A DNA stretch of 50,890 nucleotides from Clostridia bacterium (GTDB lineage: Bacteria > Bacillota > Clostridia > Oscillospirales > CAG-272): assembly GCA_017463445.1 (NCBI GenBank), contig JAFTPF010000137.1, forward strand, positions 1 through 50,890, read 5' to 3'. Below are positions 785 through 19,203 of the stretch, piece by piece. Position 1 is the first letter of the stretch. The number at the start of each line of letters is the position of its first letter. The notes beneath the pieces are model-generated. The model saw nothing but the letters and a program-made list of their open reading frames with translations, was not told where the DNA came from and made no database searches. A program made the position numbers and the translations under genes.

Positions 785-819
785 GCAACAAAATGCGCGT
801 ATTTAGGGATTTATAAGTG
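785..819 (+). promoter_or_regulatory. Putative ECF sigma-dependent promoter upstream of the lipoprotein array
   Basis: 28/35 identity to the reverse complement of 19169-19203, which lies directly upstream of the ECF sigma gene. Confidence 0.55.
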
Positions 820-962
820 TAGGAAAAGATGCTTTGCCTTGGAATCGAGGCAGACGATTCCTTTTCTTCGCTAATTCGCAAAAAAGTCTTTACAAATCCA
901 TCGTTTTGTGCTATACTGATGATGACGATACAGAAAAAATAATCTGAAAGGATGATACTGAT

Positions 963-1874
963 ATGAAAAAGATCACCAAGGCTCTTACTCTTCTGCTCTC
1001 CGGACTGCTCTGCTCCGCTTGTCTGCTGTCCTGCGCCGGGGAGGACCCCCGCCGAAATGATCGTGACGATGATGACGATGAGGCGGCCGTACAGACCACT
1101 ACCGGCGAGGCTGTTGACAATGTGCCCGACGGTGATGAGGTCACCGATAAGCTCACCCAGGAAAATGTGCTCAGTCAGGTGACCGAGAGAATGCGTCAGC
1201 TGAAAAGCTACTCTATGGGTGCAGAGATGAAGATGAATATGACTATGATGGGTATGTCCATCGCCGCAAACATGGAAATAGACGCTATTATGGATGCCGA
1301 GGGCAAACGCAACTGGACTGAAACCACCACCGAGATGCTGGGCGAGAATGTTACCGCCGTCGTCTATTACGACGAGGAGGTCTACTACATAGAGTCCGAC
1401 GGTCAGAAGATGGTTGCCGAGATGGACGAAGATGTGCTGGATTCCATGGTCAGCGAGGAGACCGAGGTCACCAATCTGGATCCCTCTTACTTTGAATCCT
1501 TCAAGCTTTACTCCGCCGATGACGGCTATCTGCTGGTCATCTCCGGCCTTAAAGAAGGCAGCAGTCTGCTGGGCTCTGCGATGAATTCGGCTATGCTGGA
1601 GGGCTACGAGGTGGATCTGAGCGACATCGAGATCGAAATGACCATTTCCGCTGACTACTGCGTCACCGAGATGACCATGACGATGACCATGAGCATGAAC
1701 ATGGACGAAGCGCTGGAGGATATGGGCGAAATGCAGATGGGTGATATGACCGCTACGGTGGAGATGAACATCACCTACTCCGATTTCGACAGTGCTGCCG
1801 GCAAGCTCGTTAAGCCCGATATGACCGGTGCGGAAGAATTTGATCTGGAGGATCTGCTGGCACTCACCGCCTGA
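963..1874 (+). CDS. Lipoprotein, acidic and Met-rich, possibly LolA/LppX-like beta-sheet fold
   Basis: GAAAGGA RBS; signal peptide with lipobox LLSC; alternating beta-strand pattern (EMTMTMTMSM). Confidence 0.75.
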   Translation: MKKITKALTLLLSGLLCSACLLSCAGEDPRRNDRDDDDDEAAVQTTTGEAVDNVPDGDEVTDKLTQENVLSQVTERMRQLKSYSMGAEMKMNMTMMGMSIAANMEIDAIMDAEGKRNWTETTTEMLGENVTAVVYYDEEVYYIESDGQKMVAEMDEDVLDSMVSEETEVTNLDPSYFESFKLYSADDGYLLVISGLKEGSSLLGSAMNSAMLEGYEVDLSDIEIEMTISADYCVTEMTMTMTMSMNMDEALEDMGEMQMGDMTATVEMNITYSDFDSAAGKLVKPDMTGAEEFDLEDLLALTA

Positions 1875-1884
1875 TCTTCACCTG

Positions 1885-1921
1885 CAAAAGAGAACTCTGA
1901 AAAGGAGTTCTCTTTTGTTTT
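1885..1921 (+). terminator. Rho-independent terminator
   Basis: CAAAAGAGAACTC-TGAAAAG-GAGTTCTCTTTTG followed by a T run. Confidence 0.75.
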
Positions 1922-1953
1922 GCGGTAAAACAGGGCGTTTTTGCCGTTTTTCC

Positions 1954-1982
1954 TTGACAAATCGGCAGATCGGTGGTATACT
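1954..1982 (+). promoter_or_regulatory. sigmaA promoter for lipoproteins 2-4
   Basis: TTGACA-17 bp-TATACT with a TG extended -10. Confidence 0.75.
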
Positions 1983-2023
1983 GTCAGGTAGATACTCTTC
2001 GAATTACCGAAAGGATGAATTCT

Positions 2024-3322
2024 ATGATAAAACCTATCAAATGGCTGGCTCTGCTGACTGCGGGATTGACCCTGACCGCTTCCCTTCTGTCCTGCGGCGG
2101 CACGAACGAAGGCACCGCTCCGGGCGGCGATGATCCCAACCAGCAGGAAAACGGCGGTCAAAGCAACAATGGAAGTATCGAAAACAATCAAGGATACGAC
2201 GGACTGTCCCCCGAGGGCGTGTATAACGCAATGTTGGAGGCGGATGACTATATTGCCGTTGCTACTATAACCCGCACCTACAACGGAGAAACCGCCACCG
2301 CAACGCTGAAAGCAGAAAAGGACGATCACCGCGTCCGTTTGAGCGAAACCTACAATTCTGCCGACGGCTCCGAATCCGAGACCTTTTACTGCGATCTGAG
2401 CGCAAAACACTGGTATCAGCAGTCGGACGGCATCTGGCTCTATACCTCCAACGACTACACCATCCAGGATCTGCTGAAGAACCTTACCCAAAGCTCCCAC
2501 GAGCTGCTGTTCGAGGACGACCACTACCACGAATACAACGAAACCGCAGGTTATCTTGCCAAAGCCGAGGCGCTTGCCGAGCACTTTGAGGATAGTTCCG
2601 AAGGCATCACCTATACCCTGAGCATGACCCCCGGCGAGGATGTTTACACCTTTTTGATCTCCGGCATCACCGAGGAGATCACGATGGTGCTGGAGCTGAA
2701 GATCACCTTCCAATCGGTGAGCGTGACCCTGCCCGAAGCAGGGACTCCTGAGAGCGGCTCCCCCGACATCGATGACAAGCCTGTTCAAACGCAAGATCCC
2801 GATGATAAACCCTCTCAGCCGACAGTAAATTATCCCTCCACCGACATCTATCAGCGTCTGTTGGAGGTAGATAATGTCGTCATCAACACATCCTACAAGC
2901 TAAACAAGGTTTCGAAGGGCAATTCCGATCTGATCAAGGACGGTCATCTGATCCTGCGGAACAACTATAACGTAGAGTCTTACATCGATTTGAATGACCG
3001 GGTTTCTTACAGATATTCCGATGGCAATTGGGTACTTCAAGACATCGACAACGGAATAAACTGGGAATTTTTCCTGGATAGCGTGGGGCTTTCCAAGGAT
3101 TGGTGGGGATTCCAATATGAGCTCTTTGACTCTTACTCCGAGGAGGCGGGCGGTATGCCCCTCAGCGAAGCCGCCGCCGCGACCTATCGCGTGGAAGACG
3201 CGCTCTTCCGCTACGATGCCGACACCGACACGTATATTTTCACCTATACTATGAGTCCCTACGATTATACATTCAGCATCAGCTTTACCGACACCGCGGT
3301 CACCATACCCGTGGTAGGATAA
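2024..3322 (+). CDS. Lipoprotein with two tandem copies of the array domain
   Basis: GAAAGGA RBS before ATG 2024; lipobox LLSC; two internal domains (SPEGVYNAMLEADD...EKDD...SVTLP and STDIYQRLLEVDN...IKDG...AVTIP). Confidence 0.75.
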   Translation: MIKPIKWLALLTAGLTLTASLLSCGGTNEGTAPGGDDPNQQENGGQSNNGSIENNQGYDGLSPEGVYNAMLEADDYIAVATITRTYNGETATATLKAEKDDHRVRLSETYNSADGSESETFYCDLSAKHWYQQSDGIWLYTSNDYTIQDLLKNLTQSSHELLFEDDHYHEYNETAGYLAKAEALAEHFEDSSEGITYTLSMTPGEDVYTFLISGITEEITMVLELKITFQSVSVTLPEAGTPESGSPDIDDKPVQTQDPDDKPSQPTVNYPSTDIYQRLLEVDNVVINTSYKLNKVSKGNSDLIKDGHLILRNNYNVESYIDLNDRVSYRYSDGNWVLQDIDNGINWEFFLDSVGLSKDWWGFQYELFDSYSEEAGGMPLSEAAAATYRVEDALFRYDADTDTYIFTYTMSPYDYTFSISFTDTAVTIPVVG

Positions 3323-3337
3323 AGAAAGGATAATAGC

Positions 3338-4162
3338 ATGAAACGATCCGCCAAGCTACTCTCCCTGCTGACGGCAGGGCTGCTGACTCTGTCCCTGCTT
3401 GCCGCCTGCGGCGATGCGGATGACGGTAACGAAATCACCACCGTCACGACACAAACAGGCGATCCTGTCACCTATGAGGGACTGACCCCTGCACAGGTCT
3501 ACGACACCCTTCTGCAGACCGAGGATTTCGTCTTTATCACCGTGATGAACCGTCAGGTGACCGGAGCAACGATCTCCATGACCTATATGCTGGAAAAGGA
3601 CGACAATACTCTGCGCTATACCGTCCATCAGGATGCCGAGGATGACACCTACGACGTCAGTTCGGTAATCTATATTGATTTGAAGGAAGGCATCTGCATC
3701 GCCCCCGACGGAGACGAATGGTATGTGCTGGAGCAGTCCGGGGACATCAGCGTGGCAGCTTTGGTGGAGAACTGTACCCCTGCCGATCTGCTGTTTGACA
3801 ACGGCAATTACAGCGTCAGCGGCGGCAAATACACCCTGACTAAGGACGCGATCCTGACGATCATCGGCAGTACCACCGCCACCGTTTCGGGCAAGATGAT
3901 CTCTGATGGCGATACCTATACATTTGACGTGGTGACCAAGGAGGCGGGCAATACCGTTACCATGACCACTAAGGTAATCTTCCGCAATGTGGGCGTGGAT
4001 ATGCCCGAATATTCCCCGGGCGCAGCCGCGAGCGGATCTGCCGCTACCGATGAGGGCGAGCAAGAGCCCGAGGCACCCGTAACCGAAGTGCCCGAAGAAA
4101 ACGAGAACGTTGATGGCGGTGAGAGCGCAGACAACGCCGATGACGCCAACGGCGGAGCGTAA
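3338..4162 (+). CDS. Lipoprotein, paralog of 2024..3322
   Basis: Lipobox LAAC; shared motifs GLTPAQVYDTLL, LEKDD, IYIDL, LLFD. Confidence 0.75.
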   Translation: MKRSAKLLSLLTAGLLTLSLLAACGDADDGNEITTVTTQTGDPVTYEGLTPAQVYDTLLQTEDFVFITVMNRQVTGATISMTYMLEKDDNTLRYTVHQDAEDDTYDVSSVIYIDLKEGICIAPDGDEWYVLEQSGDISVAALVENCTPADLLFDNGNYSVSGGKYTLTKDAILTIIGSTTATVSGKMISDGDTYTFDVVTKEAGNTVTMTTKVIFRNVGVDMPEYSPGAAASGSAATDEGEQEPEAPVTEVPEENENVDGGESADNADDANGGA

Positions 4163-4181
4163 CGCGGCACAGAAAGGATGA

Positions 4182-4880
4182 TTGATGATGCGATTGACTC
4201 AATTTTTGACCGTCTGCCTGTGCGGTCTGCTGATCTGCTCCGCGCTGTGCGGATGCGAGAGCAAGAAAGAGGGGGCTGCCACTCCAAGCGGAGATGAGCC
4301 GGGCGCCAGCGTCGGCTCCGAGCAGTTCACCCCCGAGGACGTGTTTCAGCTGCTGACCGGCGCGGACGATGTGAAGCTGAGCGTAGTCTACACCGAGGTG
4401 GAAAAAAGCGGAACGGTAAACATCAGTGAGTCTGCCGTGGTGGAAAAGGACGGCGATCTGGTGAAGGCCGTGCTTGCCGACAACGACGAGAACAACGTCT
4501 ATTATTACGATCTGGACGCCATGCTGGGCTACGAGCAGAACGACAACGGCACCTGGGAGAGCGTATCGGTAGAAGAATCGGTCCCCGATTGGCAGGCTTG
4601 TCTGGATATGGCGTTTGCCATCGAGGGGATGAACAGCCGCATTGAATGGCTGTTTTCCTCCGACACCTATGAGGCATACGATGCTAAAACGGGGCGCTGT
4701 ATGATGAAAACCGACGAGATGGTCGGCTTCTTCGGCGAAAACTGGACCGAAATGACCGCCTATCTGATGCAGAGCGGTGACACCTACTACCTGTATATGT
4801 CCACCGCCGACGATATCGGCACCTTCACCTACAAGTTGGAAATGGAATACGCCGACGTCAGCGTGACGCTTCCCAAATAA
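4182..4880 (+). CDS. Lipoprotein, paralog of 2024..3322
   Basis: Lipobox LCGC; shared motifs FTPEDVFQLL, VEKDGD, YYYDL, VSVTLPK. Confidence 0.75.
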   Translation: MMMRLTQFLTVCLCGLLICSALCGCESKKEGAATPSGDEPGASVGSEQFTPEDVFQLLTGADDVKLSVVYTEVEKSGTVNISESAVVEKDGDLVKAVLADNDENNVYYYDLDAMLGYEQNDNGTWESVSVEESVPDWQACLDMAFAIEGMNSRIEWLFSSDTYEAYDAKTGRCMMKTDEMVGFFGENWTEMTAYLMQSGDTYYLYMSTADDIGTFTYKLEMEYADVSVTLPK

Positions 4881-4881
4881 G

Positions 4882-4986
4882 AACACCCCTCTGCACGAAC
4901 TGTTGTGCAGAGGGGTGTTGTGTGGTGGGGGAGTGCGAGCATCGACCACCAAAAACAAACCTCTGCACGGCTTTGCCGTGCAGAGG
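4882..4986. terminator. Paired related hairpins between convergent genes (bidirectional terminator region)
   Basis: Two hairpins share the stem CCTCTGCAC...GTGCAGAGG (4882-4919 and 4960-4986). Confidence 0.6.
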
Positions 4987-5023
4987 CGTTGGGTGACTGT
5001 ATATTATCGTCGGAAAAGCCTGC

Positions 5024-6712
5024 TCAGACGCTGTTTTTCTCCAGCCATTCGTCCAGCTCGGCGGTGATCGCCTTCAGCGTGCCTTCCTGCAAGGGTGACT
5101 TGAGTCCCACCGCTTCGATGAGCCCCACGAAGGTCTTGGTTCCGCCCAGCTTCACGAAGTCCAGATACTTCTCCCAGGCGTACTTCGGATCCTGCAGGTG
5201 GAGCGAGAAGAACTCCAGCGACATCGCCTGCGCCATGCAGTAGTCCAGATAGTAGAAGGGATAGAGGTAGATGTGAAGCTGTCTCTGCCAGCCTGCACCT
5301 CTGCCATAGAAGGGGAGACCCTCCATATTCAGATAGGGACGGTAGATCTTCTCCAGCCTTGCCCACTCGGCGTTGCGCTCGGCGGGGGTCAGCTCGGGAT
5401 TGGAGTAGACGATCTCCTGGAAGTGGTCAACCATGGTGCCGTAGGGCAGGAAGATCAGCGCATCCTCGGCGTGGGACTGAGCGTACTTGGCAGTGTCCTC
5501 CTTGAAGAAGAGGTGGTGCCAAGGCGAGGTCAGAAACTCCATAGACATGGAGTGGGTTTCGGCGCCTTCCATGGAAGGCTGACGGATCATCGACCAGGGA
5601 ATAGTCTTGTAGGACATATAGGCGGCGAAGGCGTGACCTGCCTCGTGGGTGAGAACGTCCACGTCGCCTGCGGTTCCGTTGAAGTTGGAAAAGATGAAGG
5701 GAACTTCGTACTCGGACAGCTCGGTGCAGTAGCCGCCGGGGGCTTTGCCCTCCTTTGCCAGCACATCGAAGAGGTCCATTTCAAACATCATGTCGATGAA
5801 CTCGGCGGTCTCGGGGGACATTTCGGTGTACATTTGCTTGCCGGCCGCCAGGATCTCCTCGGGAGTTCCCTTGGGCGTGGGATTGCCGTCGGGGAAGACG
5901 AAGCCGTTGTCGTAGAACTTGAAGTCCGCAACACCGATGCGCTCCTTCTGGCGAGCCTTGATCTTGTCGACCACGGGGACTACGTCCTTGATAATCTGGC
6001 GGCGGAAGGTGGCAACCTCGGGCAGACCGTAACAGTTGCGCTGACGTCGGAGATAGCCCAGCGGGACGAAATTGTCAAAGCCCAGCTTCTTTGCCTGCTC
6101 GGTACGGTTCTTCACCAGCTTGTCGAAGATCTCGTCGAATTTCGCCTGATTGGCGTCAAAGAATCTGCCTTCGGCTTCCACGGCGGCTTTGCGGACGGCA
6201 CGGTCGGGGGACTGCTTGTAGATGCCCAGCTGAGCGACGGTCAGCTCCTTGCCGTCGAAGGGGATCCTTGCAGAGGCGTAGAGCTTCTGGTATTCGGAGG
6301 TGAGGGCGTTCTCCTCCTGCATCAGCGGGATGATTTCGGGAGAGAAGGATCTGATCTCCATCTCGGTGTTGATGAAGGTGACCTCGCCCAGCTCCTTTTC
6401 CAACTCGGCACGGAAGGGAGAGTTCACCATCGCCAGCGAGAGTAGCTGAGACTTCTCGGCGATCAGGGGACCCACTTGGTCGTAAAAGTCACGTTCGCCC
6501 TCGTAAAAGGCGTCACGAGTGTCCACGGAATTGCGGATAGAGGCGATAGTCGCCATAGTGCCGAAGACGGAACTGATCTTCTCTACGTTACGAAGCACAT
6601 CGAGTTGCTCCTTCGCTGAGGTCGCAGCGGCGAACTGCTCGGCAGCATCGGTCAAGTCGGCAAGCAGCCGATCCACGTCGGGGCGGGTGTAGGGCATTTC
6701 GGAAAATTTCAT
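5024..6712 (-). CDS. M3 family oligoendopeptidase (PepF-like)
   Basis: Zinc motif HEAGH, AETHSMSMEF and WQRQLHIYLYPFYYLDY; start MKFSEMPYTRP after a GAAAGGA RBS. Confidence 0.92.
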   Translation of the reverse strand: MKFSEMPYTRPDVDRLLADLTDAAEQFAAATSAKEQLDVLRNVEKISSVFGTMATIASIRNSVDTRDAFYEGERDFYDQVGPLIAEKSQLLSLAMVNSPFRAELEKELGEVTFINTEMEIRSFSPEIIPLMQEENALTSEYQKLYASARIPFDGKELTVAQLGIYKQSPDRAVRKAAVEAEGRFFDANQAKFDEIFDKLVKNRTEQAKKLGFDNFVPLGYLRRQRNCYGLPEVATFRRQIIKDVVPVVDKIKARQKERIGVADFKFYDNGFVFPDGNPTPKGTPEEILAAGKQMYTEMSPETAEFIDMMFEMDLFDVLAKEGKAPGGYCTELSEYEVPFIFSNFNGTAGDVDVLTHEAGHAFAAYMSYKTIPWSMIRQPSMEGAETHSMSMEFLTSPWHHLFFKEDTAKYAQSHAEDALIFLPYGTMVDHFQEIVYSNPELTPAERNAEWARLEKIYRPYLNMEGLPFYGRGAGWQRQLHIYLYPFYYLDYCMAQAMSLEFFSLHLQDPKYAWEKYLDFVKLGGTKTFVGLIEAVGLKSPLQEGTLKAITAELDEWLEKNSV

Positions 6713-6721
6713 GATGGAATC

Positions 6722-6810
6722 CTTTCTTGGAGACACTTCCGAAGGAAATTTCTCCATTAACCTCCCAAAGAACTTCCCTTAGGCAAAATTGCTTTGCAAT
6801 TTTGCGGGGA
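6722..6810 (+). repeat. Degenerate REP-like repeat, copy 2
   Basis: GGAGACACTTCC-GAA-GGAAATTTCTCC hairpin, then CCCAAAGAACTT and a GCAAAATTGC-TTT-GCAATTTTGC hairpin. Confidence 0.4.
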
Positions 6811-6985
6811 TAGGTTTGGAGGTTCGTTTTTCTCATAGTATTATTTTACCATATTACGGCGTGGAATGCAAGTAAATGGCAGAAAATTCCAAGAAATATT
6901 TACAAAATATCGATTGACAAACCGCCACCCCTCGTGTACAATGGGAGGACCAACACCGCTGATTTTGTTTGAAAGGAACGCTAAA

Positions 6986-7834
6986 ATGGGTTCTGAACAT
7001 ACTACGGGCGCATCCACAGCCGCCCCTACCCGAAACTGGGCTCCCGAGCCGGAAAAGATCGTCTCGGGACTGGATTTCACCGTCGATACCGACCGAATGC
7101 TCTCCCTCGCCATCCAGATCTCCTCCAAAATGTTGGAATCGGGAGCGGAGATCCACCGCGTGGAGGACACCCTCACCCGCATCTGCCGCGCATACGGCGC
7201 ACGAGAAGTGCAGGCATTCTCCATTCCCTCGCTGGTGGCGGCTACCGTCACCATGCCCGACGGCTATCATAAGACCGAGATCTTCCGCATCACCTCCATC
7301 TCCAACCGTTACGACGTGCTGGAAAATCTCAACGCCCTCTCCCGCCGTATCTGCGCTTCCCCCATCCCTCTGGATGTGCTGGAAGCGGAATTTGAAAAAG
7401 CCAAGACCCCCGACCACCGTCCCAAATGGCTGCTGATGCTCTGCGGCATCGTTGCGGCTGCCGGATTTACCCTCTTCTTCGGGGGTGACTGGCGGGACGC
7501 CATTGCCGCCCTCCCCGTGGGCGCACTGCTGACCTTCCTGGATCTGACCAAGCCCGTCAAGCTCCACGTCCTCGCCTACACCCTGCTGGCATCGGTAGCG
7601 GCAGGTCTGCTCTGCATTCTCACCTTTTACGTAGGACTCGCCTGCCACATGGATAAGGTGATGATCGGCGGCATTATGCTGCTGATCCCCGGGCTCTCCT
7701 TCGGCGCGTCCATCCGTGAACTGCTCTGCGGGGACATCATCGCCGGTTGCCTAAGAATGATCCAAGCCCTGCTCACCGCCGTCTGCATTGCCGCAGGCTT
7801 CGCGGTTGCCGTCGTTATCGGGGGGTGGTTCTGA
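6986..7834 (+). CDS. Threonine/serine exporter family protein (ThrE domain)
   Basis: MLESGAEIHRVEDT, LNALSRRIC and IMLLIPGL motifs; several TM helices. Confidence 0.88.
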   Translation: MGSEHTTGASTAAPTRNWAPEPEKIVSGLDFTVDTDRMLSLAIQISSKMLESGAEIHRVEDTLTRICRAYGAREVQAFSIPSLVAATVTMPDGYHKTEIFRITSISNRYDVLENLNALSRRICASPIPLDVLEAEFEKAKTPDHRPKWLLMLCGIVAAAGFTLFFGGDWRDAIAALPVGALLTFLDLTKPVKLHVLAYTLLASVAAGLLCILTFYVGLACHMDKVMIGGIMLLIPGLSFGASIRELLCGDIIAGCLRMIQALLTAVCIAAGFAVAVVIGGWF

Positions 7835-8292
7835 TGAATTCAGCCGAACTCATGGAGATGCTCTTTTCCACCTTCGCCATCGCCGCCAGCACCCTGATCT
7901 ACGCCGTCCTCATGCGGGTCAAGCTCCGTCACCTGCCATCCATCGGATTGGGCGCGGGAATGACCTACCTCATCTTCGCACTGCTGAACTCCGTCGGCTT
8001 ATCCCTGCTCCTATCCAATATGATCGCCGCAATGATCGCCACTATCTACGGCGAGATCATGGCGCGCCTCTTCAAAGCCCCAGTTACCATCTATTCCCTA
8101 CCCTCCATCATCCCGCTGGTTCCCGGCGGCAGCCTCTACTACGCCATGGCCGCTCTGATGAACGGCAATGAGGCGGAATTCGTGAGCCGCGGCACCGATA
8201 CCGTCATGATCGCCTTGGGTCTCGCCATTGGCATCATCTCCGTCTCGGTCATTGGCGTCTTTTTGCCCAGACCGGGGTTTAAGCGGAAATGA
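7834..8292 (+). CDS. Threonine/serine exporter family protein (second ThrE subunit)
   Basis: TGATG stop/start overlap; MARLFKAPVT..SIIPLVPGGSLYY motif. Confidence 0.85.
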   Translation: MNSAELMEMLFSTFAIAASTLIYAVLMRVKLRHLPSIGLGAGMTYLIFALLNSVGLSLLLSNMIAAMIATIYGEIMARLFKAPVTIYSLPSIIPLVPGGSLYYAMAALMNGNEAEFVSRGTDTVMIALGLAIGIISVSVIGVFLPRPGFKRK

Positions 8293-8326
8293 AATGCCTC
8301 CGGCGACCCGCTTTCTTGATAAGAAT

Positions 8327-8586
8327 TGTAATTCGCCTTTGGCGAATTACATGGAGTTTATTGTAGTTGCTTTGCAACTGCAATAAACATCTGAGCGGGG
8401 CAAAGAACTTTTATAAAAGGCGGCAAATACTTGCCGTCTACGTAAAACAATATCGCTCCGAATGTTGGATCATCGAAATCCTTCATTCGGAGCGTTGTCT
8501 ATATGTACCGGGCAAGTATTTGCACGGCTTATTAATAGTTCTTGAGGGGTTCTTAGGGGAACTTCTTGAAAGAAGTTCCCCTAAGC
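8327..8586. repeat. Large palindromic REPIN-like element (two head-to-head REP-like arms) preceded by small hairpins, copy 3
   Basis: Left arm CAAAGAACTTTTATAAAAG-GCGGCAAATACTTGCC, central hairpin CGCTCCGAATG...CATTCGGAGCG, right arm GGCAAGTATTTGC...AGTTCTTGAG-GGGGAACTTCTTGAAAGAAGTTCCCC. Confidence 0.75.
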
Positions 8587-8587
8587 G

Positions 8588-9745: not shown

Positions 9746-9788
9746 GGGGCTTTCCTTTCGGTTTTATGAGAAATACCGCCCGCAGGGG

Positions 9789-9817
9789 TTGACAAACAGG
9801 GGACGGTGATGTATAAT
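9789..9817 (+). promoter_or_regulatory. Consensus sigmaA promoter of the antitoxin RNA
   Basis: TTGACA-17 bp-TATAAT with no convincing protein-coding gene downstream. Confidence 0.8.
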
Positions 9818-9823
9818 GTAGTT

Positions 9824-10134: not shown

Positions 10135-10144
10135 GAAAATTCAC

Positions 10145-10182: not shown

Positions 10183-10240
10183 ATAAAGAATGATAGTGCA
10201 AACTATCGCCGAAATCACATCTCAAGGAGTGTCTAACCGT

Positions 10241-10621: not shown

Positions 10622-10662
10622 CCGCCCCGCTAAAATCATTGAATAACAAAAGGATATAGAGT

Positions 10663-11394: not shown

Positions 11395-11395
11395 T

Positions 11396-12319
11396 ATGGC
11401 ACTGGATCCTATTCAGCTGGAGCTGCTCCGGCAGGTCGCCGATCTGCACGAGGTGCCTCAGGGTGCGTACAGTCTGCGCATCAACGGCGCCCTCCACGGC
11501 AAAAATTCCTCGGAAAACATCACCATTGAGAAAAAAAACGACAAGCCCGGTATTGACATCTACATCAAAGCAGGCACCAAAAAAGAGAGCGTGCACATCC
11601 CCGTACTCCTCTCCCAAAGCGGTCTCTCCGAGCTGGTCTACAACGACTTTCACATCGGTGAGGGTGCCGATGTGACCATCGTTGCCGGCTGCGGCATCCA
11701 CAACGGCGGCAGTGAGAAGTCCGAACATAGCGGCATTCACGCCTTCTACCTTGCCAAGGATGCGAAGGTGAAGTATATCGAGAAGCACTACGGCTCGGGC
11801 GACGGCTCGGGCGAGCGGATCATGAATCCCACCACCGAAGTCTACCTGTCCGAGGGTGCGTACATGGAGATGGAAACCGCCCAGATCAAGGGCGTGGACT
11901 CCACCGACCGCATCACCAAAGCCGAGCTTGCCGCTCACGCTACGCTGGTGATCCACGAGAAGCTGATGACCCACGGCAAGCAGTTCGCCAAGACCACCTT
12001 CGAGGTCGCCCTCAATGGCGAAGGCAGCGGCACCCACGTTGTCTCCCGCGCGGTGGCAAAGGACGACAGCCGTCAGGTGTTCCTCTCCAAGATCCACGGC
12101 AACAACCGTTGCTCCGGTCACACCGAGTGCGATGCTATCCTGATGGACAATGCCGTGATCTCCGCTATCCCCGAGATCTCCGCCTCCCATGTGGATGCGG
12201 CTCTCATCCACGAAGCCGCCATCGGTAAGATCGCCGGTGAGCAGCTGATGAAGCTGATGACCCTGGGACTGACCGAACAGGAAGCCGAAGAACAGATCAT
12301 CAACGGATTTTTAAAGTAA
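11396..12319 (+). CDS. sufB: SufB/SufD family Fe-S assembly scaffold
   Basis: GHTECDAI, HEAAIGKIAGEQLMKLMTLGL and terminal IINGFLK. Confidence 0.8.
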   Translation: MALDPIQLELLRQVADLHEVPQGAYSLRINGALHGKNSSENITIEKKNDKPGIDIYIKAGTKKESVHIPVLLSQSGLSELVYNDFHIGEGADVTIVAGCGIHNGGSEKSEHSGIHAFYLAKDAKVKYIEKHYGSGDGSGERIMNPTTEVYLSEGAYMEMETAQIKGVDSTDRITKAELAAHATLVIHEKLMTHGKQFAKTTFEVALNGEGSGTHVVSRAVAKDDSRQVFLSKIHGNNRCSGHTECDAILMDNAVISAIPEISASHVDAALIHEAAIGKIAGEQLMKLMTLGLTEQEAEEQIINGFLK

Positions 12320-12322
12320 GCA

Positions 12323-12535
12323 GGGACGCTGTCCCTTGGAACCCCTGAAGGAATCTTCTTGAAAGAAGATTGTTCCCTGTAGTACGCCTTTCTGGCGTAC
12401 TACAGCAATTCGGCAATGCCGAATTGCATTTCACTCTCCAAGAACTTTCATAAAAGCGACAAATACTTGCCACCTACATAAACAAACGCGCTCCGAATGA
12501 AGGATTTCGATATCCAACATTCGGAGCGTTTTTTC
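12323..12535 (+). repeat. REP-like multi-hairpin repeat, copy 4
   Basis: AATCTTCT-TGAA-AGAAGATT, CAAGAACTTTCATAAAAG, CAAATACTTGCC and CGCTCCGAATG..CATTCGGAGCG; resembles the reverse complement of 8456-8586. Confidence 0.75.
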
Positions 12536-12544
12536 ATTTGGTAT

Positions 12545-13735
12545 TCAGATCTTCTCCGTACGGAAAGCGAGTCCTGCCTCATGGACGGGAATCGCGCGCA
12601 GAAGCTTGCTCAGACAGTACATCAGCGCGTCCTCGTCGTCAAAGGCGGCAAGCACCAGCAGTTGGGTGAGACTGTAGCGGGTGTATACATCCCCCGGGGA
12701 GAGGTTTTCCTGCAGGCTCTCCTCCAACACAGCAAGAGTTCGATCCAGCACTTTGGGCACAGGGATCTCTCCGCTGCGATCAGGGTTGACCACGGTCAGC
12801 AGAATCAGATAGCGGCGGCTGTCGGTGCCGCACGCTCCCGTGCCGCTGTATTGCTGGTAGAGCAGTCTGAACGTATCGTATTCACAGCGGATAGCGCGAA
12901 AAGCGCGGTCAACGTCCAGCTTTTCCCGCACAAGAGTGAGGTCGGGTTCAATGCCGTTATCCACGCGGCAGAGATTGCGATACAAATTCCGCAGACGGTC
13001 GGAGGGCGTTTGACGGTAGATCTGATAGAACCGATCCATCGCTCTGTCGTAGGCAGAAAGGGCTTCCCTGTCCTCTCCTTTGGCGATCAGCGCGCTGACC
13101 TCGTTGTAGTAGAAGCTCTCTTGCCGAGGATCGATCTCCATAGCGTGTCGGGACAGGAAGACGATCTGATCGTACCGCTCTTCTCCCGCCAGGATCTGGA
13201 CTGCCGCGTTGTAGCAGTAAAGATACATCGCCTCATAACGGTCTGCTGCCTCCCGCGCCCACGGCTCGTCCGCATACTTTCCGCCGAGATAGCGCCCCTT
13301 GTACAGCGCCATGGCGCGGAGCGCGGCGTTGAGCTTTTCCTCCGGCAGATCGGTCGTTTTGGTGCGTTCCGCCATCTCCAGAAAATCGTCGGTGTCGATC
13401 TTCACGGGCAGGCGCGGATTCCAGAAATAACTTCCATCCCGCCGAAGGATCACTCGGCGACTCTCCTCAAAATCCAGCAGATCCAGCGCATTGCGCGCAC
13501 GGCAAAGCAGGGTCTTCAGAGAGGGTGCCCGATCTTCCTGTCCGCCGGGCTCCTGCCACAGCAAGGTCAACAGCTCCTCTCGGGAAATGCGGCGGTGTCG
13601 GTTATGTACGATGTATTCCAGCAGCTTCCATAGCTTTTTGGAGCGATTGTCCGACTCCGAAATAATATTGTCGCCCTGTCGGATGGAAAATTCTCCAAAG
13701 GTTTTGATGATAAGGGGTTCGGTCTCACTGAGCAT
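12545..13735 (-). CDS. SARP/BTAD-domain transcriptional regulator
   Basis: N-terminal IKTFGEFSI..KLWKLLEY..LLWQE winged helix; BTAD-like segment LYKGRYL...EIDPRQE. Confidence 0.8.
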   Translation of the reverse strand: MLSETEPLIIKTFGEFSIRQGDNIISESDNRSKKLWKLLEYIVHNRHRRISREELLTLLWQEPGGQEDRAPSLKTLLCRARNALDLLDFEESRRVILRRDGSYFWNPRLPVKIDTDDFLEMAERTKTTDLPEEKLNAALRAMALYKGRYLGGKYADEPWAREAADRYEAMYLYCYNAAVQILAGEERYDQIVFLSRHAMEIDPRQESFYYNEVSALIAKGEDREALSAYDRAMDRFYQIYRQTPSDRLRNLYRNLCRVDNGIEPDLTLVREKLDVDRAFRAIRCEYDTFRLLYQQYSGTGACGTDSRRYLILLTVVNPDRSGEIPVPKVLDRTLAVLEESLQENLSPGDVYTRYSLTQLLVLAAFDDEDALMYCLSKLLRAIPVHEAGLAFRTEKI

Positions 13736-13764
13736 GGTAAGGACTCCTATGGTGTGCCGTTTGG

Positions 13765-14604
13765 TTACACATGGATAAACTTCAAGACGATCACCGCGCC
13801 TGATGCCAAAACAGCGATCACCGCAAAGGTGACGATGAGAGTATTCAGCATCTCACCGCGGGCGGGATCGGTCTGATCAGACTCGCCCGGATCGGGGGCA
13901 TCGGTCCCGGCAGGATCGGTATTGTCCGTGTCGCCGCCGAGGATATTCCCCGAGGAGGAGGGAGACTGCGGTCCGGTGGTCCCAATCACGGCAGGAGGAG
14001 TACCGACCGGATAGGTGGTCACTGCCGTGGTGGTGGAGGCATCGGTAGACAGCGGGTCCGCGGGAGCGGATTGAAGTGCGCCGGTGAGGGTGATGGGCAT
14101 GGTGGAATAGGTAGGCGGGTCGGTGACTACCGGCGCTTTGGTGGTAGTAATCTTGGTGGTGGTGACCTGAGGCGTGGTGATGATCGGCACGATAGTGGTA
14201 GCAGGAAGCCAGGAGGAAAGATCGCCGGAGCCCTCCACGGGAGTGGAACCCGACAGATTGGGGGCGTATGAGCTGCCGTCCACTACACCCGACGAGCTGT
14301 CGGGGAGGGCGGTGGTGTCCGAGGGGGTGGGCATAGAGCCGTCGGGATCGGCGGTGGTTTCGGTGGGGAGATCGGTGACGGTGCCGTCCTCGGGGACAGT
14401 GGGCTCGGCGGAGGTCTCTCCTACCGTTTCGGCAACCGACTCGGCTTCGGCAGTGGTTGTAGCTTCCGCCTGGGTCATGTCGGCGGCAAGGGGTGGCTCC
14501 TCGGCATCTGCCAGCGCCAGCAGTCCGCTGCAGGCGACCAGCAGTAGCAGGACGGCAAGCAAGGTCAGCGTCAGCCGCAGGGTCAGATCGGATCGTGTAT
14601 TCAT
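13765..14604 (-). CDS. Secreted, membrane-anchored Thr/Pro/Ser-rich low-complexity protein
   Basis: N-terminal signal peptide, low-complexity T/P/S/D body, C-terminal TM helix; GGAG RBS before ATG 14604. Confidence 0.65.
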   Translation of the reverse strand: MNTRSDLTLRLTLTLLAVLLLLVACSGLLALADAEEPPLAADMTQAEATTTAEAESVAETVGETSAEPTVPEDGTVTDLPTETTADPDGSMPTPSDTTALPDSSSGVVDGSSYAPNLSGSTPVEGSGDLSSWLPATTIVPIITTPQVTTTKITTTKAPVVTDPPTYSTMPITLTGALQSAPADPLSTDASTTTAVTTYPVGTPPAVIGTTGPQSPSSSGNILGGDTDNTDPAGTDAPDPGESDQTDPARGEMLNTLIVTFAVIAVLASGAVIVLKFIHV

Positions 14605-14842
14605 AAATACTCCGTAATATATAGAAGTTGCGGGCGGGGTAGGTGATCGGTAACAAAATCCGCTCCGTGGCATCATTATAACACGAAAATGTGAAATTTT
14701 CATTGCCATTTTTTCAAAAAAAGCGATTTCCCCGTTTTCCACAAAAATATTTGCAAATTTCGTGCAATTTGTACTATTGATTTTGCCGCCGCTCTGTGGT
14801 ATCCTAAGAGCAGTTTGATAAAATATCAAGGAGGGCTTGATC

Positions 14843-15424
14843 GTGAGCAAAATTACCTGGAAGGGCGGTGCGCTGTTGGCGCCTGTTCCTGCGGTGATGG
14901 TGTCCTGCGGAAGCATGGAGGCACCCAATATCGTGACGGTGGCGTGGACCGGCATCACCTGCACCCAGCCACCAAAGACCTACATTTCTCTCCGAAAGAG
15001 CCGTCATTCCTACGGGCTGATCAAGGAGAGCGGCTGCTTTGTGATCAATCTGACCACCGAGGCGCTGGTGCGCGCCACCGATTTCTGCGGCGTGCGCTCG
15101 GGTCGGGATGTGAACAAGTTCGAGGTTTGCCATCTGACCCCCGAGGCGGCGGAGCATATCCCCTGCCCTGCCATCGCCGAGTCGCCGCTGTCCATCGAGT
15201 GCAGAGTCACAGATATGATCGAGTTGGGCTCCCACGATATGTTCCTTGCCGACATCGTGGGCGTTTCGGTAGACGAGACTCTGCTGGATGCAAACGGCCG
15301 TCTGGCGCTGGAAAAGGCGGGGCTTGCCGCCTACTGCCACGGCGAGTATTACGCGCTGGGCAAGAGACTTGGCAAGTTCGGCTACTCTGTGGAAAAGAAA
15401 AAGAAGAAAAAGAAGAACAAATGA
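14843..15424 (+). CDS. Flavin reductase family protein (flavoredoxin-like)
   Basis: PVPAVMVSCG, NIVTVAWTG, DFCGVRSGRDVNKF, LGSHDMFLA; GTG start after AGGAGG. Confidence 0.9.
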   Translation: MSKITWKGGALLAPVPAVMVSCGSMEAPNIVTVAWTGITCTQPPKTYISLRKSRHSYGLIKESGCFVINLTTEALVRATDFCGVRSGRDVNKFEVCHLTPEAAEHIPCPAIAESPLSIECRVTDMIELGSHDMFLADIVGVSVDETLLDANGRLALEKAGLAAYCHGEYYALGKRLGKFGYSVEKKKKKKKNK

Positions 15425-15469
15425 ATGCGAGACGACCTCTCGCGCTCTGCAAACTTCAAAGACTCCTGT

Positions 15470-15504
15470 AAAAAGCTCCCGACGAATCTCGTCGGGAGCT
15501 TTTT
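15470..15504. terminator. Bidirectional terminator
   Basis: AAAAAGCTCCCGACGA-ATC-TCGTCGGGAGCTTTTT between convergent genes. Confidence 0.8.
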
Positions 15505-15529
15505 CGTTGATCGTGTCAGATACGGCGCA

Positions 15530-18500
15530 TCAATCGTAACAGTTCCACTCGTATTCCAGGTAGGTCTCCACCAGATAACGAGCGTTGTTTCGGGCGTTAG
15601 ACAGCGTTCCCATCGAACGGATTCCGTCTGCGCTCATCCCGTCGATCACGACCACCCAGCCCTGCTGTGTTTCGAAGGTCACGTCGTACAGGTTGTTGTA
15701 GCAGTGATGGAACGCATTGGGAAAGATCCTCTTCACGGTGGACGGAATGGTGATCGACTCCAGACCGCAGGAGGCAAATGCATATTGGCCGATCTCCCGC
15801 ACAGCCGCAAGATCGATCTTTTGCAGGGAGCTACATTCCCTGAACGCATCCGACAGGATCGTCTTGACGGTATCGGGAATGATTACGGTCTGCAATGAGG
15901 AGCAATATTCAAATAAGCCCACCGACACGCACTCGATCTCAGGGAGTGCAACATAAACCAGATCGTCACAGCCGGAGAAAACATAGTCATCTACCGTCTC
16001 TATGGGCAGCTCCGCCCAATCGATCCGCTTCAGCGAACCGCACTCCGTAAATGCCCCTGCCTGCACCGTGTTCAAGGTATTCGGGAAGTCTATAGTCGTC
16101 AGGGCGGTACAGCTTGCAAAGGCGCAAACGCCGATGGAGCGGATACCGCTGTTCCCCAGTTCCACCGTCTTCAAGGATGGACAGTAGGCAAATGCATACT
16201 CGCTCAGCGCGTTCACCGAGCCGGGAACGGTCACCGACCGCAGTCCGCTCTCGGCAAACGCCCAATCTCCAATGATCTCCAGCGCATGGGGAAGGGTGAT
16301 TTTGGTAAGGGCGGTACAACCGAGGAAAGCTCTTGCCCCGATGGTCCGAATGCTCCCGGGGATCGTGATGCTTTGCAGATTCTCCATGCCCTCAAAAGCG
16401 GATTCGCCGATCACGGTAACTGCCACGCCTTGATAGGTGGCGGGGATGGTTACTTTAGCGGCGTTTTTATCCTCATAGCCCGTCACGCCCCAGGTTCCAT
16501 CCTCCTGCATTTGGTAGGTCAGATATTTGGAGGTAGGGTCGCTCCACGTCCAAGTCATCTCCGCAAAGGTGTCGGTCAACGCTTCTGCCGCCACCGCAGG
16601 ATCGGAAAGGTCCGCGTCCACGTTCCAGCCGATGGGAGATTCGAATGTCACTTCCTTCAGCCGAGTGGACATAAAGCTGAACGCTCCGGCACTGATAGCG
16701 GTTACCGATACGGGGATGGTGATGGATTCGATCCTGCCGTTGAAAAAGATCCGGCTTCCGATAGTCGTAAGACCTGACGGCAGGGTCAGCGACTTCAGAG
16801 GACAATTGTAAAACGCCTCGTCACAGATCTTGGTTATACCGTCCGGAAGACTCAGTGTACCAAGCGCGATGCAATCCTTGAACAGGCGAATGGGGATCTC
16901 GGTCAGATTTTCGGACAGGGTCACGCTCTTCAGATTTGAGCAGTATTCAAAAGCCCCGGTACCAAGGGTAGTAACGCTGTCGGGCAGGATGATGCTATTG
17001 AGTCCTTTACATTGGCTGAATGCGTTACCGCCGATCTCCTGCAATCCGTCGGGGAGATCTACCGACTCAAGAGCGGTACAACTGCTGAAGGCGGCGGAAT
17101 CAATAATCTCTAGCGTAGAGGGGAAGGTCACCGATCGTAGTGCGGTACAGCCCGAGAATGCCATTTCTCCGATCTCCACGATTCCTGTTTTCAATACGAG
17201 GGTGGTAAGATCGGTACATTCACCGAACGCCAGCGCCCCCATTTCGGCAAGCGATCCGGGCAGGGTCAGGGACTTGACGGCGCAACCGTAGAATGCTTCC
17301 TGCCCGATAGCAGTAAGAGTCGAGGGGAAATTGACGGTGGTCAGCTTGGGGCAATACAGAAAGGCTTGATCTTCAATGATCCGAAGTCCCTCGGAAAGCG
17401 TCACCGACCGCAGATTTCCGCATTCCATGAACGCCGCCTCGCAGACGGCGGTCACGTCGATTCCCTTATAGGTAGCGGGAATCGTAACTGTGGTGGCGTT
17501 ACGGTTATCGTAATAGAATACGCCATAGGTTCCGTCGTCCAGCTTACGGAACACCAGATCGGGGTCTGCGGAAGTATCTTCTTTCGTCCACTCCACGGTA
17601 GCAAAGGTTTCGGTCAACGCGGCAGCGGCGGCGGCAGGATCGGAAAGATCTGCCGTGACACTCCAATAAGCGGTCTCATTGAAATGCGCTCTCGTCAGTC
17701 CGCTGTATTGGAAGGCGAATTTGCCGATCTGTGCCAAGGAAGCGGGGAGCGTGATCTCTTTCAGCGCTTCGCATTTATAGAATGCCGCCGTGTCGATACG
17801 CTGCAGGGTCTCGGGAAGCGTGACCGTATGCAATGCGTGGCAGTTCTGGAATGCGCTTTCCGAAAGGGCTTTCACACCCGTCTCTACCGTGACCGTGGTC
17901 AGAGAAGTGCAGGCGGTGAATACGCCTTCCATCACCGTCTCTACCGAACCCGGGATGGTAACACTCTTCAGTCCGCAACCGTAAAAGGCGTTTTTGCCAA
18001 GATCGGTCAGGGTAACGGGCAGACGGATCTCGCTGAGATCGGTACAGCCTTCGAAGGCATTCGCTCCGATATAGGTAATGCCGTCCTGAATGATGACACT
18101 CTTCAGATCATCGCTGTTCAGAAATGCGGAGTTCAGAACATACTTGACCGGTGTGTCCTTATAGGTCGCAGGAATCACAACCTGCTCCGATTCCTGCGAA
18201 TCATCGTAATCAGAGATCGCATAATACCCGTCGGTCATCAGCACGAAGGACAGTCCCGGATCGGGCGTGGTCACCGGCTCGTTGACATCGGGCGGATCCT
18301 CGGTCTCGGGCGGGGTGGTGGTGACTACGGGCGGGAGGCTGTTGGTAGGATCGGTGCCCACGGGATCGTCCGCACTCTCCAGCAAACGGGTAGCAAAGAA
18401 GATTCCCACAAACAGGAAAACAATGCCCATAGCATAGGCAACCACCGCTTTGGAGATCCGTCGGACATGGATGCCCGCATAGGCGCGGGGACGGTAGGGG

Positions 18501-18622
18501 ACGCCGCTGATGGCTGCTGCCGTCAGGGCGGCGGGAGCTTTGACCTTGCCGCCAAGCCCCTGCAGACGCAAAGTGAGCGCGTCGGTCTCGGGCAGGTCGA
18601 GGGGATGCCTGTCTTTATACAT
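15530..18622 (-). CDS. Membrane-anchored BspA-type leucine-rich-repeat protein, probable anti-sigma factor
   Basis: Short cytoplasmic N-terminus, one TM helix, Pro/Thr linker, then many LxxIxLPxxLxxIGxxAFxxC repeats in three modules; overlaps the stop of the upstream ECF sigma. Confidence 0.85.
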   Translation of the reverse strand: MYKDRHPLDLPETDALTLRLQGLGGKVKAPAALTAAAISGVPYRPRAYAGIHVRRISKAVVAYAMGIVFLFVGIFFATRLLESADDPVGTDPTNSLPPVVTTTPPETEDPPDVNEPVTTPDPGLSFVLMTDGYYAISDYDDSQESEQVVIPATYKDTPVKYVLNSAFLNSDDLKSVIIQDGITYIGANAFEGCTDLSEIRLPVTLTDLGKNAFYGCGLKSVTIPGSVETVMEGVFTACTSLTTVTVETGVKALSESAFQNCHALHTVTLPETLQRIDTAAFYKCEALKEITLPASLAQIGKFAFQYSGLTRAHFNETAYWSVTADLSDPAAAAAALTETFATVEWTKEDTSADPDLVFRKLDDGTYGVFYYDNRNATTVTIPATYKGIDVTAVCEAAFMECGNLRSVTLSEGLRIIEDQAFLYCPKLTTVNFPSTLTAIGQEAFYGCAVKSLTLPGSLAEMGALAFGECTDLTTLVLKTGIVEIGEMAFSGCTALRSVTFPSTLEIIDSAAFSSCTALESVDLPDGLQEIGGNAFSQCKGLNSIILPDSVTTLGTGAFEYCSNLKSVTLSENLTEIPIRLFKDCIALGTLSLPDGITKICDEAFYNCPLKSLTLPSGLTTIGSRIFFNGRIESITIPVSVTAISAGAFSFMSTRLKEVTFESPIGWNVDADLSDPAVAAEALTDTFAEMTWTWSDPTSKYLTYQMQEDGTWGVTGYEDKNAAKVTIPATYQGVAVTVIGESAFEGMENLQSITIPGSIRTIGARAFLGCTALTKITLPHALEIIGDWAFAESGLRSVTVPGSVNALSEYAFAYCPSLKTVELGNSGIRSIGVCAFASCTALTTIDFPNTLNTVQAGAFTECGSLKRIDWAELPIETVDDYVFSGCDDLVYVALPEIECVSVGLFEYCSSLQTVIIPDTVKTILSDAFRECSSLQKIDLAAVREIGQYAFASCGLESITIPSTVKRIFPNAFHHCYNNLYDVTFETQQGWVVVIDGMSADGIRSMGTLSNARNNARYLVETYLEYEWNCYD

Positions 18623-19127
18623 CTATGCCATCTCCTTTCAGTAGTTGTCTGAGCAGTTCCTTGCCGCGGGACAGTCTGGAGCGGAAGCTGCCAGGACGCA
18701 GTCCGAGAATCTCGGCGCAGGTCTCGGCTGGGATCTCCTCTATGTAGTACAGTTGGATGGGGATGCGGTATTTTGCCGGCATCTTCAGGAGAGCAGCGAA
18801 CAGTCCGTGCTCCTCCTCGGGTACGGATGCCAGATCGCCCACCTCCTCCAGGGTAAGCGTGGTGTCTTTGAAGGCTGCCGAAAAATAGCGTTTACAACAG
18901 ACCAACGTAGTGCGGATCAGCCACGCTTTGCGATGCTCCTCGCTATCAAAGGTGCGTTCTTTTTCAAACAGTCGCATAAATACTTCCTGAAATACTTCTT
19001 CCGCCGCTTCTTCCTTGCGGGTACGGGACAGCGCGATGCGCCAGACCGTATCGGCGTGGAGGCGGACGATTTCATCCCGCCGGTCCGCTCCGGGCGGTTG
19101 TGGGATGTCCGTGTAGGGTTTTGGCAT
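18615..19127 (-). CDS. ECF-type RNA polymerase sigma factor
   Basis: Region 2 (AEEVFQEVFMRL, KAWLIR) and region 4 (MPAKYRIPIQLYY..AEILGL..RSRLSRGKELLR); AGGAGG RBS. Confidence 0.9.
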   Translation of the reverse strand: MPKPYTDIPQPPGADRRDEIVRLHADTVWRIALSRTRKEEAAEEVFQEVFMRLFEKERTFDSEEHRKAWLIRTTLVCCKRYFSAAFKDTTLTLEEVGDLASVPEEEHGLFAALLKMPAKYRIPIQLYYIEEIPAETCAEILGLRPGSFRSRLSRGKELLRQLLKGDGIDV

Positions 19128-19168
19128 AGCCGATCCTCCTCTCGTTATGGGATAGTCAAAACTCCTTT

Positions 19169-19203
19169 CACCCATAATTCCGCAATTACGGGCATTTTGT
19201 TGC
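19169..19203 (-). promoter_or_regulatory. Putative autoregulatory ECF promoter (GCAAC...CGGAAT)
   Basis: AAC-type -35 and CGxA-type -10 directly upstream of the ECF gene; near copy at 785-819. Confidence 0.55.

Follow-up and report, generated by a model that had tools for sequence, protein, structure and literature searches.

The described systems closest to the one considered here are the sigma/anti-sigma pair SigW/RsiW of Bacillus subtilis and the SigI/RsgI systems of cellulolytic clostridia, which comprise multiple paralogous sigma/anti-sigma pairs with differing extracellular sensor domains. In many groups of extracytoplasmic function (ECF) sigma factors, though not in all, promoters typically have a -35 element that contains AAC and a -10 element of the CGT type. 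The locus under study belongs to an uncultured genus of Bacillota and lies on contig JAFTPF010000137.1 of assembly GCA_017463445.1 (Clostridia bacterium, lineage CAG-272); the window is the whole stretch of 50,890 nucleotides that was analysed. It encodes an ECF sigma factor, a putative membrane anti-sigma with leucine-rich repeats (LRRs) and, some 18 kb away, an array of lipoprotein genes, and a 35-bp element occurs both ahead of the array (site A) and ahead of the sigma gene (site B). ECF sigma factors usually autoregulate and are co-encoded with their regulators according to the Introduction of the ECF reclassification paper, which also mentions SigI/RsgI systems (PMC7826278).

The reading favoured for site A is that of a regulon: the sigma operon and the lipoprotein array would have an ECF promoter in common. 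Its probability is put at roughly two in three. The direct observations that bear on it are motif membership, conservation, gene content and co-occurrence, and these are presented first.

Two sites of a proposed promoter class

Site A occupies positions 785-819 on the plus strand and site B positions 19203-19169 on the minus strand, and they are identical at 28 of 35 positions without a gap; direct comparison confirms the coordinates, strands and identity that the initial annotation had given them. In A, a proposed -35 element, GCAACAAA (785-792), is followed after 14 nt by a proposed -10 element, GGATTTAT (807-814). In B, the same proposed -35, GCAACAAA, lies at 19203-19196 and the proposed -10, GGAATTAT, at 19181-19174. 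The 3' end of B is 41 nt from the ATG of the sigma gene (19127), and that of A, which has no sigma gene behind it, is 143 nt from the ATG of the first lipoprotein gene (963).

The genome (G000; 2,395,955 bases in 147 contigs, the window being contig C122) was searched on both strands for further copies. Widespread occurrence of the 35-mer at random intergenic sites, named beforehand as evidence that would speak against a regulatory element, is not what is seen: A and B are reciprocally each other's sole match at nine or fewer mismatches. That two A/T-rich intergenic stretches merely resemble each other by chance is effectively refuted. Base composition does matter here, as the binomial expectation for at least 28 identities in 35 is 5e-5 per genome at the genome's composition and rises to 0.07 at a match probability of 0.33. 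However, the next best match to B in the genome is 23/35, which is also the peak in five block-shuffled genomes, and the A/B resemblance is therefore not due to chance; moreover, an independent profile scores A at E = 4e-6, and A is conserved in the related genome G009.

Similar TTTTCG(T/C)TTTTT..GAAAAA tracts had been described as preceding both copies. Such tracts are indeed present (760-780 on the plus strand, TTTTTTCGTTTTTTTGAAAAA, just 5' of A; 19247-19229 on the minus strand at B), but they are out of register, with 4 nt between the end of the tract and GCAAC at A and 25 nt at B. The tract at B, 'TTTTCGCTTTTT', is the 3' arm and T-tail of a terminator-like hairpin that belongs to the gene upstream of B (19243..19269, minus strand; stem 19269-19243). 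A TTTGAAA-like tract is found ahead of many sites of this promoter family. The linkage of A and B over 18 kb, which had been taken as meaningful, does not extend to G009, where their counterparts are on separate contigs.

The probable own promoter of the sigma operon

Upstream regions of 31 sigma genes of the family were extracted from the same genome and six relatives. All 31 contain a two-block motif that consists of TTG(C/T)AAC AAAA, about 12 variable bases and G(A/G)(A/G/T)TTA(T/G)(A/G)GGTG, with a spacer that usually ends in a T-run; in the paralogues it is followed directly by the ribosome-binding site of the sigma gene, AAAGGAGG. The motif of B is kept upstream of four orthologous sigma genes and, in its family form, of 26 paralogues. 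Because the motif is conserved, because a terminator precedes B and because no sigma-70-type promoter was found in 15300-19400, site B (19169..19203, minus strand) is best read as the operon's own ECF promoter, of the autoregulatory type, a reading that is standard for proteins of this family (PMC7826278).

The expected ECF pattern of an AAC-containing -35 and a CGx -10 holds for its first half: GCAAC is present at both sites. The only CGT is too close to serve well as the -10, 8 nt 3' of the AAC, and the promoters of the orthologues do not retain it; the implied -10 is not supported. What is conserved is a second block, GGA(A/T)TTAT, which lies 17 nt after GCAAC and reads GGAATTAT in B.

The sigma leader in the ortholog clade (19128-19170 on the minus strand of the window; loci L002-L004 elsewhere) has about 45 extra bases, with a second Shine-Dalgarno (SD) sequence, GAGAGGAGG, before the ATG. 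The first SD-like sequence, GAAAGGAG, which is the real ribosome-binding site in the paralogues, is left stranded, and a partly conserved inverted repeat, TTATGGG...CCCATAA, spans the insert.

Orphan sites in the genome

The complete G000 sequence was scanned with an nhmmer profile for which the 31 regions upstream of sigma genes were the sole training set. It recovers A with 28.0 bits (E = 4e-6), against 28.6 bits for B. Apart from A and the four sigma promoters of its training set, it locates three further sites without a sigma gene, at C19:8207-8241 (E = 0.003), C2:2591-2622 (E = 0.006) and C100:33094-33128 (E = 0.03). A second profile, built from 21 sites of the class, adds C17:5637-5678 (E = 9.4e-5). 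One nhmmer match, C39:15213-15256 (E = 0.027), was set aside as apparently coding, A/T-rich DNA. The strict pattern GCAACAAA-N12-15-GGAWTTAT is present in G000 at exactly the A, B, C2, C19 and C100 sites and is absent from ten block shuffles.

All five sites that lack a sigma gene, referred to here as orphans, are intergenic and oriented toward envelope genes. Behind A is the array of four genes that begins with a DUF6612 lipoprotein, and behind the C2 site are three lipoproteins of 431, 448 and 447 residues, homologous to the second to fourth genes of the array (blastp E = 1e-11 to 3e-4). The C19 orphan precedes a 170-residue lipoprotein followed by an ATP-binding cassette (ABC) ATPase, the C100 orphan a secreted 571-residue LRR_5 protein, and the C17 orphan a 346-residue LRR_5 lipoprotein. 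The element was thus rightly described in the initial annotation as common to the sigma operon and the lipoprotein array, where it resembles an ECF-type promoter, although its scope is wider, with five orphans in this genome. These comparisons support a regulon that would be widened to at least five envelope operons.

A family of hairpins that resemble repetitive extragenic palindromes is represented in G000 by 34 copies, several of them at contig ends and none in the window (for example, C100:33160-33215). The 18-base loop is invariant, and the flanking G/A-rich stems vary between copies yet stay complementary. One copy separates the C100 orphan promoter from its LRR_5 gene, and one was seen upstream of a sigma paralog in G002 (L006).

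Conservation across the genus

The comparative set consists of 20 genomes of the genus. The sigma/anti-sigma operon family is limited to part of it, sigma paralogues (at least 57% identity) being present in 7 of the 20 genomes (G000, G002, G003, G008, G009, G012 and G017). Over the whole set, the strict pattern has 23 matches (G000, 5; G009, 8; G017, 5; G012, 2; G002, 2; G016, 1; the other 14 genomes, 0), and a reversed control has none. All but one of the 23 are in genomes with the sigma family; counted by genome, matches occur in 5/7 family-bearing and 1/13 family-free genomes. Of the two family-bearing genomes without a match, G003 has a stop in its single family gene, and G008, at 58% completeness, has an own promoter that deviates from the pattern. 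The single match in G016 was dismissed as probable chance, with no downstream open reading frame (ORF) and with the flanking features missing.

The 23 matches divide into 4 sigma-own promoters and 19 orphans, 18 of which have a co-oriented ORF of at least 100 codons starting within 450 nt. By a rough regular expression, 13/19 orphans precede a lipobox-positive gene, against 124/1983 (6.3%) in a rough G000 gene set; orthologous sites are not independent, and by locus this corresponds to about 6 lipoprotein loci of 11. The first gene of the array behind A is among those with a lipobox by this measure. One further case, on contig C51 of G009, is missed by the expression because of the range of residues that it covers, and its counterparts in G000 and G017 are lipobox-positive. 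Among the remaining targets, a TPR membrane protein occurs in two species; the others are a secreted LRR_5 protein, a protein of unknown type and two unclear cases. LRR_5 targets number two in G000 and one in G017.

In the C2-type and C19-type groups, each with members in G000, G009 and G017, the hexamer blocks are invariant and the spacer is scrambled, which is the footprint that a working two-block promoter should leave. Features beyond the search pattern recur in ten independent orphans: a T before GCAAC (9/10), an A after GCAACAAA (8/10) and a T-run that closes the spacer on its 3' side (6-9/10). At site A in G009, which precedes a lipoprotein 78% identical to that in the window, both blocks are identical, as are 8/14 spacer positions. 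Site A is missing in G015, a genome with a lipoprotein homologue of 64% identity and no sigma ortholog. A mobile element of the miniature inverted-repeat type was considered as the carrier of the motif and rejected, as beyond about 45 nt the flanks of the various loci are not alike.

Non-coding stretches of 50-110 nt located 3' of the C2-type and C19-type orphans are near-invariant in three species, and some of their stems show compensatory changes. They include L061 (G000 C2, about 2700-2775) and L067 (G000 C19, about 8250-8345), with counterparts L080, L075, L073 and L072, and are possible new leader or small-RNA elements. A search of Rfam with seven loci around orphan and own promoters gave two sub-threshold chance matches only.

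The sigma factor and its promoter variants

The sigma gene (18615..19127, minus strand) encodes a protein of 170 residues with two domains only, Pfam Sigma70_r2 (E = 7e-11) and Sigma70_r4_2 (E = 2e-9). Its score of 64.1 bits against the ECF superfamily model TIGR02937, for which the cut-off is 42.9, supports its earlier assignment to the ECF sigma factors; none of the equivalog models reaches its own cut-off. The nearest solved relative is SigW (5wuq, E = 8.9e-16). Orthologues in G009, G012, G017 and G008 are 84-88% identical to it and together with it form a five-member clade (support 96/96), and the paralogues are 57-72% identical.

Variants of the promoter motif track the sigma clades on the tree, as GCAAC...GGAATTAT, GTAATTTT...GGAATTAGGAG and GTAAC...AGTTATAGG. 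A pattern for the GTAAC...AGTTAT clade, GTAACAAA-N14-17-AGTTAT, and a corresponding one for the GTAATTTT clade match own sigma promoters only (4/4 and 5/5 matches, respectively), with 0 orphans. In G009, a GCAAC-type own promoter is present only at the ortholog of the window sigma, the other three family members having GTAAC or GTAAT; the same genome has seven orphans of the GCAAC class, 5/7 of them with GGATTTAT. Since the two other clades have no orphans and G009 has a single GCAAC sigma, the orphans appear to be specific to this sigma clade, and this specificity fits a regulon rather than random relics of a decaying gene family.

One sigma paralog of G000 (C65:3626-4101, L057) is split into two frames near residue 70, with its promoter and partner gene intact; either the gene has become a pseudogene by frameshift or the assembly is at fault. 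The genome (2.4 Mb) has 30 matches to Sigma70_r4_2, and several ORFs with sigma domains are 440-860 codons long, which suggests fused or extended sigma-like proteins.

The partner protein

The gene downstream of the sigma gene (15530..18622, minus strand) encodes a putative single-pass anti-sigma of 1030 residues and begins 8 nt before the sigma gene ends. In the protein, a conserved, presumably cytoplasmic N-terminal domain (about residues 1-57) is followed by a transmembrane helix (about 58-80), a Pro/Thr linker and an ectodomain of BspA-type LRR_5 repeats (E = 1.6e-199, 652 bits, 8 stretches). The view that this LRR protein is an anti-sigma finds support at the level of architecture, in the 57-residue N-domain, the one transmembrane helix, the variable ectodomain and the overlap with the sigma stop.

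At other loci, 26 proteins encoded directly after sigma genes of the family share their N-terminal 55-60 residues with the window protein (consensus ...NDxL...APxxLxxAAKxGxPLR...HVRRFxKAVxAYA). Beyond this domain they have a hydrophobic helix and then unrelated C-terminal parts; among the partners, LRR_5 is found only in the ortholog clade and with the sigma paralog on C15. At most loci the sigma and partner genes have 8 or 11 nt in common, and at two they have 17 nt. The partner has the layout of a putative membrane anti-sigma with exchangeable sensor domains.

No described anti-sigma domain, such as zf-HC2 (class I) or RsgI_N, is recognised in the partner. Its residues 1-100 have no Pfam match at E up to 10, a comparison of the N-domain with solved structures gives no chain with E below 0.67, and an HxxxCxxC motif is absent from the sequence. 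A homologue search with the same 100 residues returns only 2 relatives of similar length. A profile of the N-domain, however, finds 104 clusters among 1.84 billion representative proteins, always from residue 1 and in proteins of 67-915 residues. The genome has a gene for an M50 site-2 protease, and release of the sigma by regulated proteolysis would be possible; such a gene is found almost everywhere, and its presence carries little weight.

An LRR ectodomain on an anti-sigma was not described in the literature searched by titles and abstract starts. In the ECF reclassification paper, 'LRR' and 'leucine' do not occur in the main text, 'LRR' and 'BspA' do not occur in the portion of the supplement examined, and the one match to 'leucine' in that portion is to a leucine carboxyl methyltransferase, which is irrelevant here (PMC7826278). 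There are about 26 separate genes for BspA-type LRR_5 proteins in G000.

The lipoprotein array and its leader

Four consecutive lipoprotein genes occupy 963-4880 on the plus strand. The first (963..1874) encodes a protein of 303 residues with an LLSC lipobox and a match to Pfam DUF6612 (E = 6.1e-11; 42.8 bits against a gathering score of 23.7), for which DUF6612 clusters in the Atlas are a second line of evidence; a literature search for DUF6612 found no paper. The second (1973..3322, plus strand) is homologous to the third and fourth genes and to the three C2 lipoproteins (blastp E = 3e-14 to 3e-4). Its longest ORF opens at a GTG, with a signal peptide and the likely start at the Met at 2024, and its Atlas record runs from residue 18. 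The third (3338..4162, plus strand; 274 residues) has an N-terminal lipobox and homology within the array, as does the fourth (4182..4880, plus strand; 232 residues), which is also homologous to the 431-residue C2 lipoprotein (E = 1.3e-11). The second to fourth genes, homologous to one another, have only weak leads to DUF6612 in the Atlas and no match in a Pfam scan.

A housekeeping-type promoter, TTTACA-17-(TG)TATACT (889..917, plus strand; 10/12 matches), lies between A and the start of the first lipoprotein. It is kept in 6/6 of the lipoprotein homologues examined, including those without A, and the array therefore does not depend on A. As A is located about 70 nt upstream of this conserved promoter, the array would have a basal and an inducible promoter. 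The leader downstream of A also contains a hairpin with a T-run (833..861, plus strand), a structure that G009 does not share.

In G009 the entire site-A module occurs twice in near-identical form, at L059 (C19) and L065 (C26). The duplicated module includes the A/T tract, the ECF promoter, the leader, the sigma-70-type promoter, the ribosome-binding site and the first 14 codons. The copies head two different lipoproteins, of 300 and 225 residues, and the whole has the form of a duplicated promoter-plus-signal-peptide cassette.

Arguments against a regulon

Several points weigh against reading A as part of a regulon. Some are general: the strict pattern was composed after the sites had been seen, the related genomes are not independent samples, and 4/7 of the family-bearing genomes are only 58-75% complete. 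The -10 block, moreover, does not contain the CGT that characterises many ECF promoters. As for site A, the closest relative, G009, is the only one to retain it, and it is missing in G017 and G012 despite their sigma orthologues (lipoprotein homologue 50-51% identical), from which it would follow that the membership of this operon in the regulon is recent and variable.

A further point concerns the reader of the sites. The C15 paralog has the same -35 and a similar -10 (GGATTTTAG) and could read some of them. It may be that the orphans are functional but are read by this paralog, the partner of which also has LRR_5, or by several paralogues, a rather unlikely arrangement on present comparisons. 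The own promoter of C15 has the TGCAACAAAA -35 and an GGGATTTTAG -10, the A, C2 and C17 sites carry GGATTT and not GGAATT, and the paralogues are 57-72% identical. Nevertheless, the gap between the blocks and the TTAT end of the second match B and not the C15 promoter, A and B are closer to each other than to anything else in the genome, and G009 has its seven orphans with only one GCAAC-type sigma, the ortholog of that in the window. Reading of the orphans by the window sigma is therefore the version of the regulon retained here.

The resemblance between orphans and sigma promoters continues at several sites past the -10 into an SD-like AAGGAGG. This similarity suggests descent from sigma promoters, and the orphans probably arose by duplication of these and not independently. 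A rival reading, held to be improbable, is that A, and perhaps other orphans, are remains of deleted sigma/anti-sigma cassettes with no present role, and that the array is driven by sigma-70 only. The strong, conserved promoter at 889-917 could by itself account for expression of the array, the shared features past the -10 include GTG and the SD-like AAGGAGG plus TTTTG, a segment of about 100 nt that contains A is present in G000 and G009 but not in G017, as if by an indel, and the split C65 paralog indicates that the family does decay. Such a relic would, however, not be expected to keep its hexamer blocks across species while the spacers diverge. One promoter class accounts for every orphan, both the 5 of G000 and the 19 that fit the pattern, two other sigma clades have none, and the orphans are strongly biased to correctly oriented lipoprotein and LRR_5 genes. 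A search of 820-962 for remains of sigma or anti-sigma coding sequence gave nothing (best blastx E = 0.88; blastn against all locus DNA is also negative), and several orphans are 52-82 nt from a start codon, with no other promoter-sized gap. The initial annotation had raised the same alternative, a leftover of a deleted ECF gene; as an account of the present state it is improbable, for the lack of a coding remnant and the retention of the blocks, but it may describe how the site originated.

Finally, A is followed in G000 by the terminator-like hairpin with a T-run at 833-861 (z = -3.35). It is conceivable, if quite improbable, that A drives a small RNA or a leader that ends at this hairpin, and not the lipoprotein mRNA, and the strongly conserved non-coding stretches of 50-110 nt behind the C2-type and C19-type orphans would be in keeping with transcripts of this kind. 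The hairpin is not conserved in G009 (z = -0.8), however, no Rfam family matches, and the T-run is paired inside the predicted stem.

The proposed regulon and its significance

In the proposed model, A and B would be promoters of one class, (T)GCAACAAA-N13/14-GGA(A/T)TTAT, with the two blocks as inferred -35 and -10, read by the sigma factor encoded at 18615-19127. The sigma would be held at the membrane, through binding by the N-domain, by the product of the overlapping downstream gene, the single-pass anti-sigma with the lineage-specific 57-residue cytoplasmic domain and the BspA-type LRR_5 ectodomain. A presumed signal at the ectodomain would inactivate the anti-sigma, probably via regulated proteolysis, and the free sigma would then transcribe its own operon from B, in a positive feedback, together with a small envelope regulon. 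In G000 this regulon would include the array behind A, the paralogous three-gene array on C2, the lipoprotein and ABC ATPase on C19, and the LRR_5 proteins on C100 and C17.

As the repeats of the sensor are of a type also found in three predicted targets, it may be that the LRR_5 ectodomain senses the BspA-type LRR proteins and DUF6612-like lipoproteins that form a layer on the surface of its own cell, or a protein of a partner cell or host bound by them, and that engagement or loss of the layer releases the sigma and induces more of the same. This idea is speculative and rather improbable. If it were true, the circuit would be a self-referential one for surface adhesins, with a family of anti-sigma domains not described before at its base, in an uncultured genus of Bacillota.

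The general picture of ECF signalling is unaltered by this locus. What it would provide is a regulon that can be assigned to an ECF system of this one lineage, in a genus not yet cultured, with one promoter class, six sites in G000 and defined envelope targets. BspA-type LRR proteins, which are abundant here yet functionally obscure, would be tied to a dedicated signalling pathway, and the anti-sigma N-domain constitutes a small family outside current domain libraries. Because sigma paralogues and their promoters diverge together, they are candidate orthogonal regulatory parts.

Comparison with known systems

The system is in kind an ordinary ECF sigma/anti-sigma system. As in SigW/RsiW, the sigma has the sigma-2 and sigma-4 domains, the gene for a membrane partner is located downstream and translationally coupled, the operon has a conserved own promoter, as autoregulation would lead one to expect, the predicted targets are envelope proteins, and a site-2 protease gene is present in the genome. 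Unlike RsiW, the partner here has a cytoplasmic domain without a Pfam family or a solved chain and a BspA-type LRR_5 ectodomain, and the -10 block is GGAWTTAT instead of a CGT-type element. Within the literature searched by titles and abstract starts and the consulted portion of the reclassification paper, the LRR_5 sensor, the unclassified anti-sigma N-domain and the GGAWTTAT -10 appear to be undescribed.

In its logic the system is also similar to SigI/RsgI, with many paralogous pairs, variants of the own promoter and a variable extracellular domain on a conserved N-terminus. Membership in that family was rejected, because the window sigma has a canonical Sigma70_r4_2 and the N-terminus of its partner has no Pfam match at E up to 10; the predicted targets, moreover, are lipoproteins and LRR proteins and not components of the cellulosome. 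The third point of comparison is with BspA-type LRR_5 surface proteins, whose repeat is carried by the anti-sigma ectodomain and by three of the predicted targets. In the anti-sigma, unlike in those surface proteins, the repeats are fused to a transmembrane helix and a sigma-associated N-domain.

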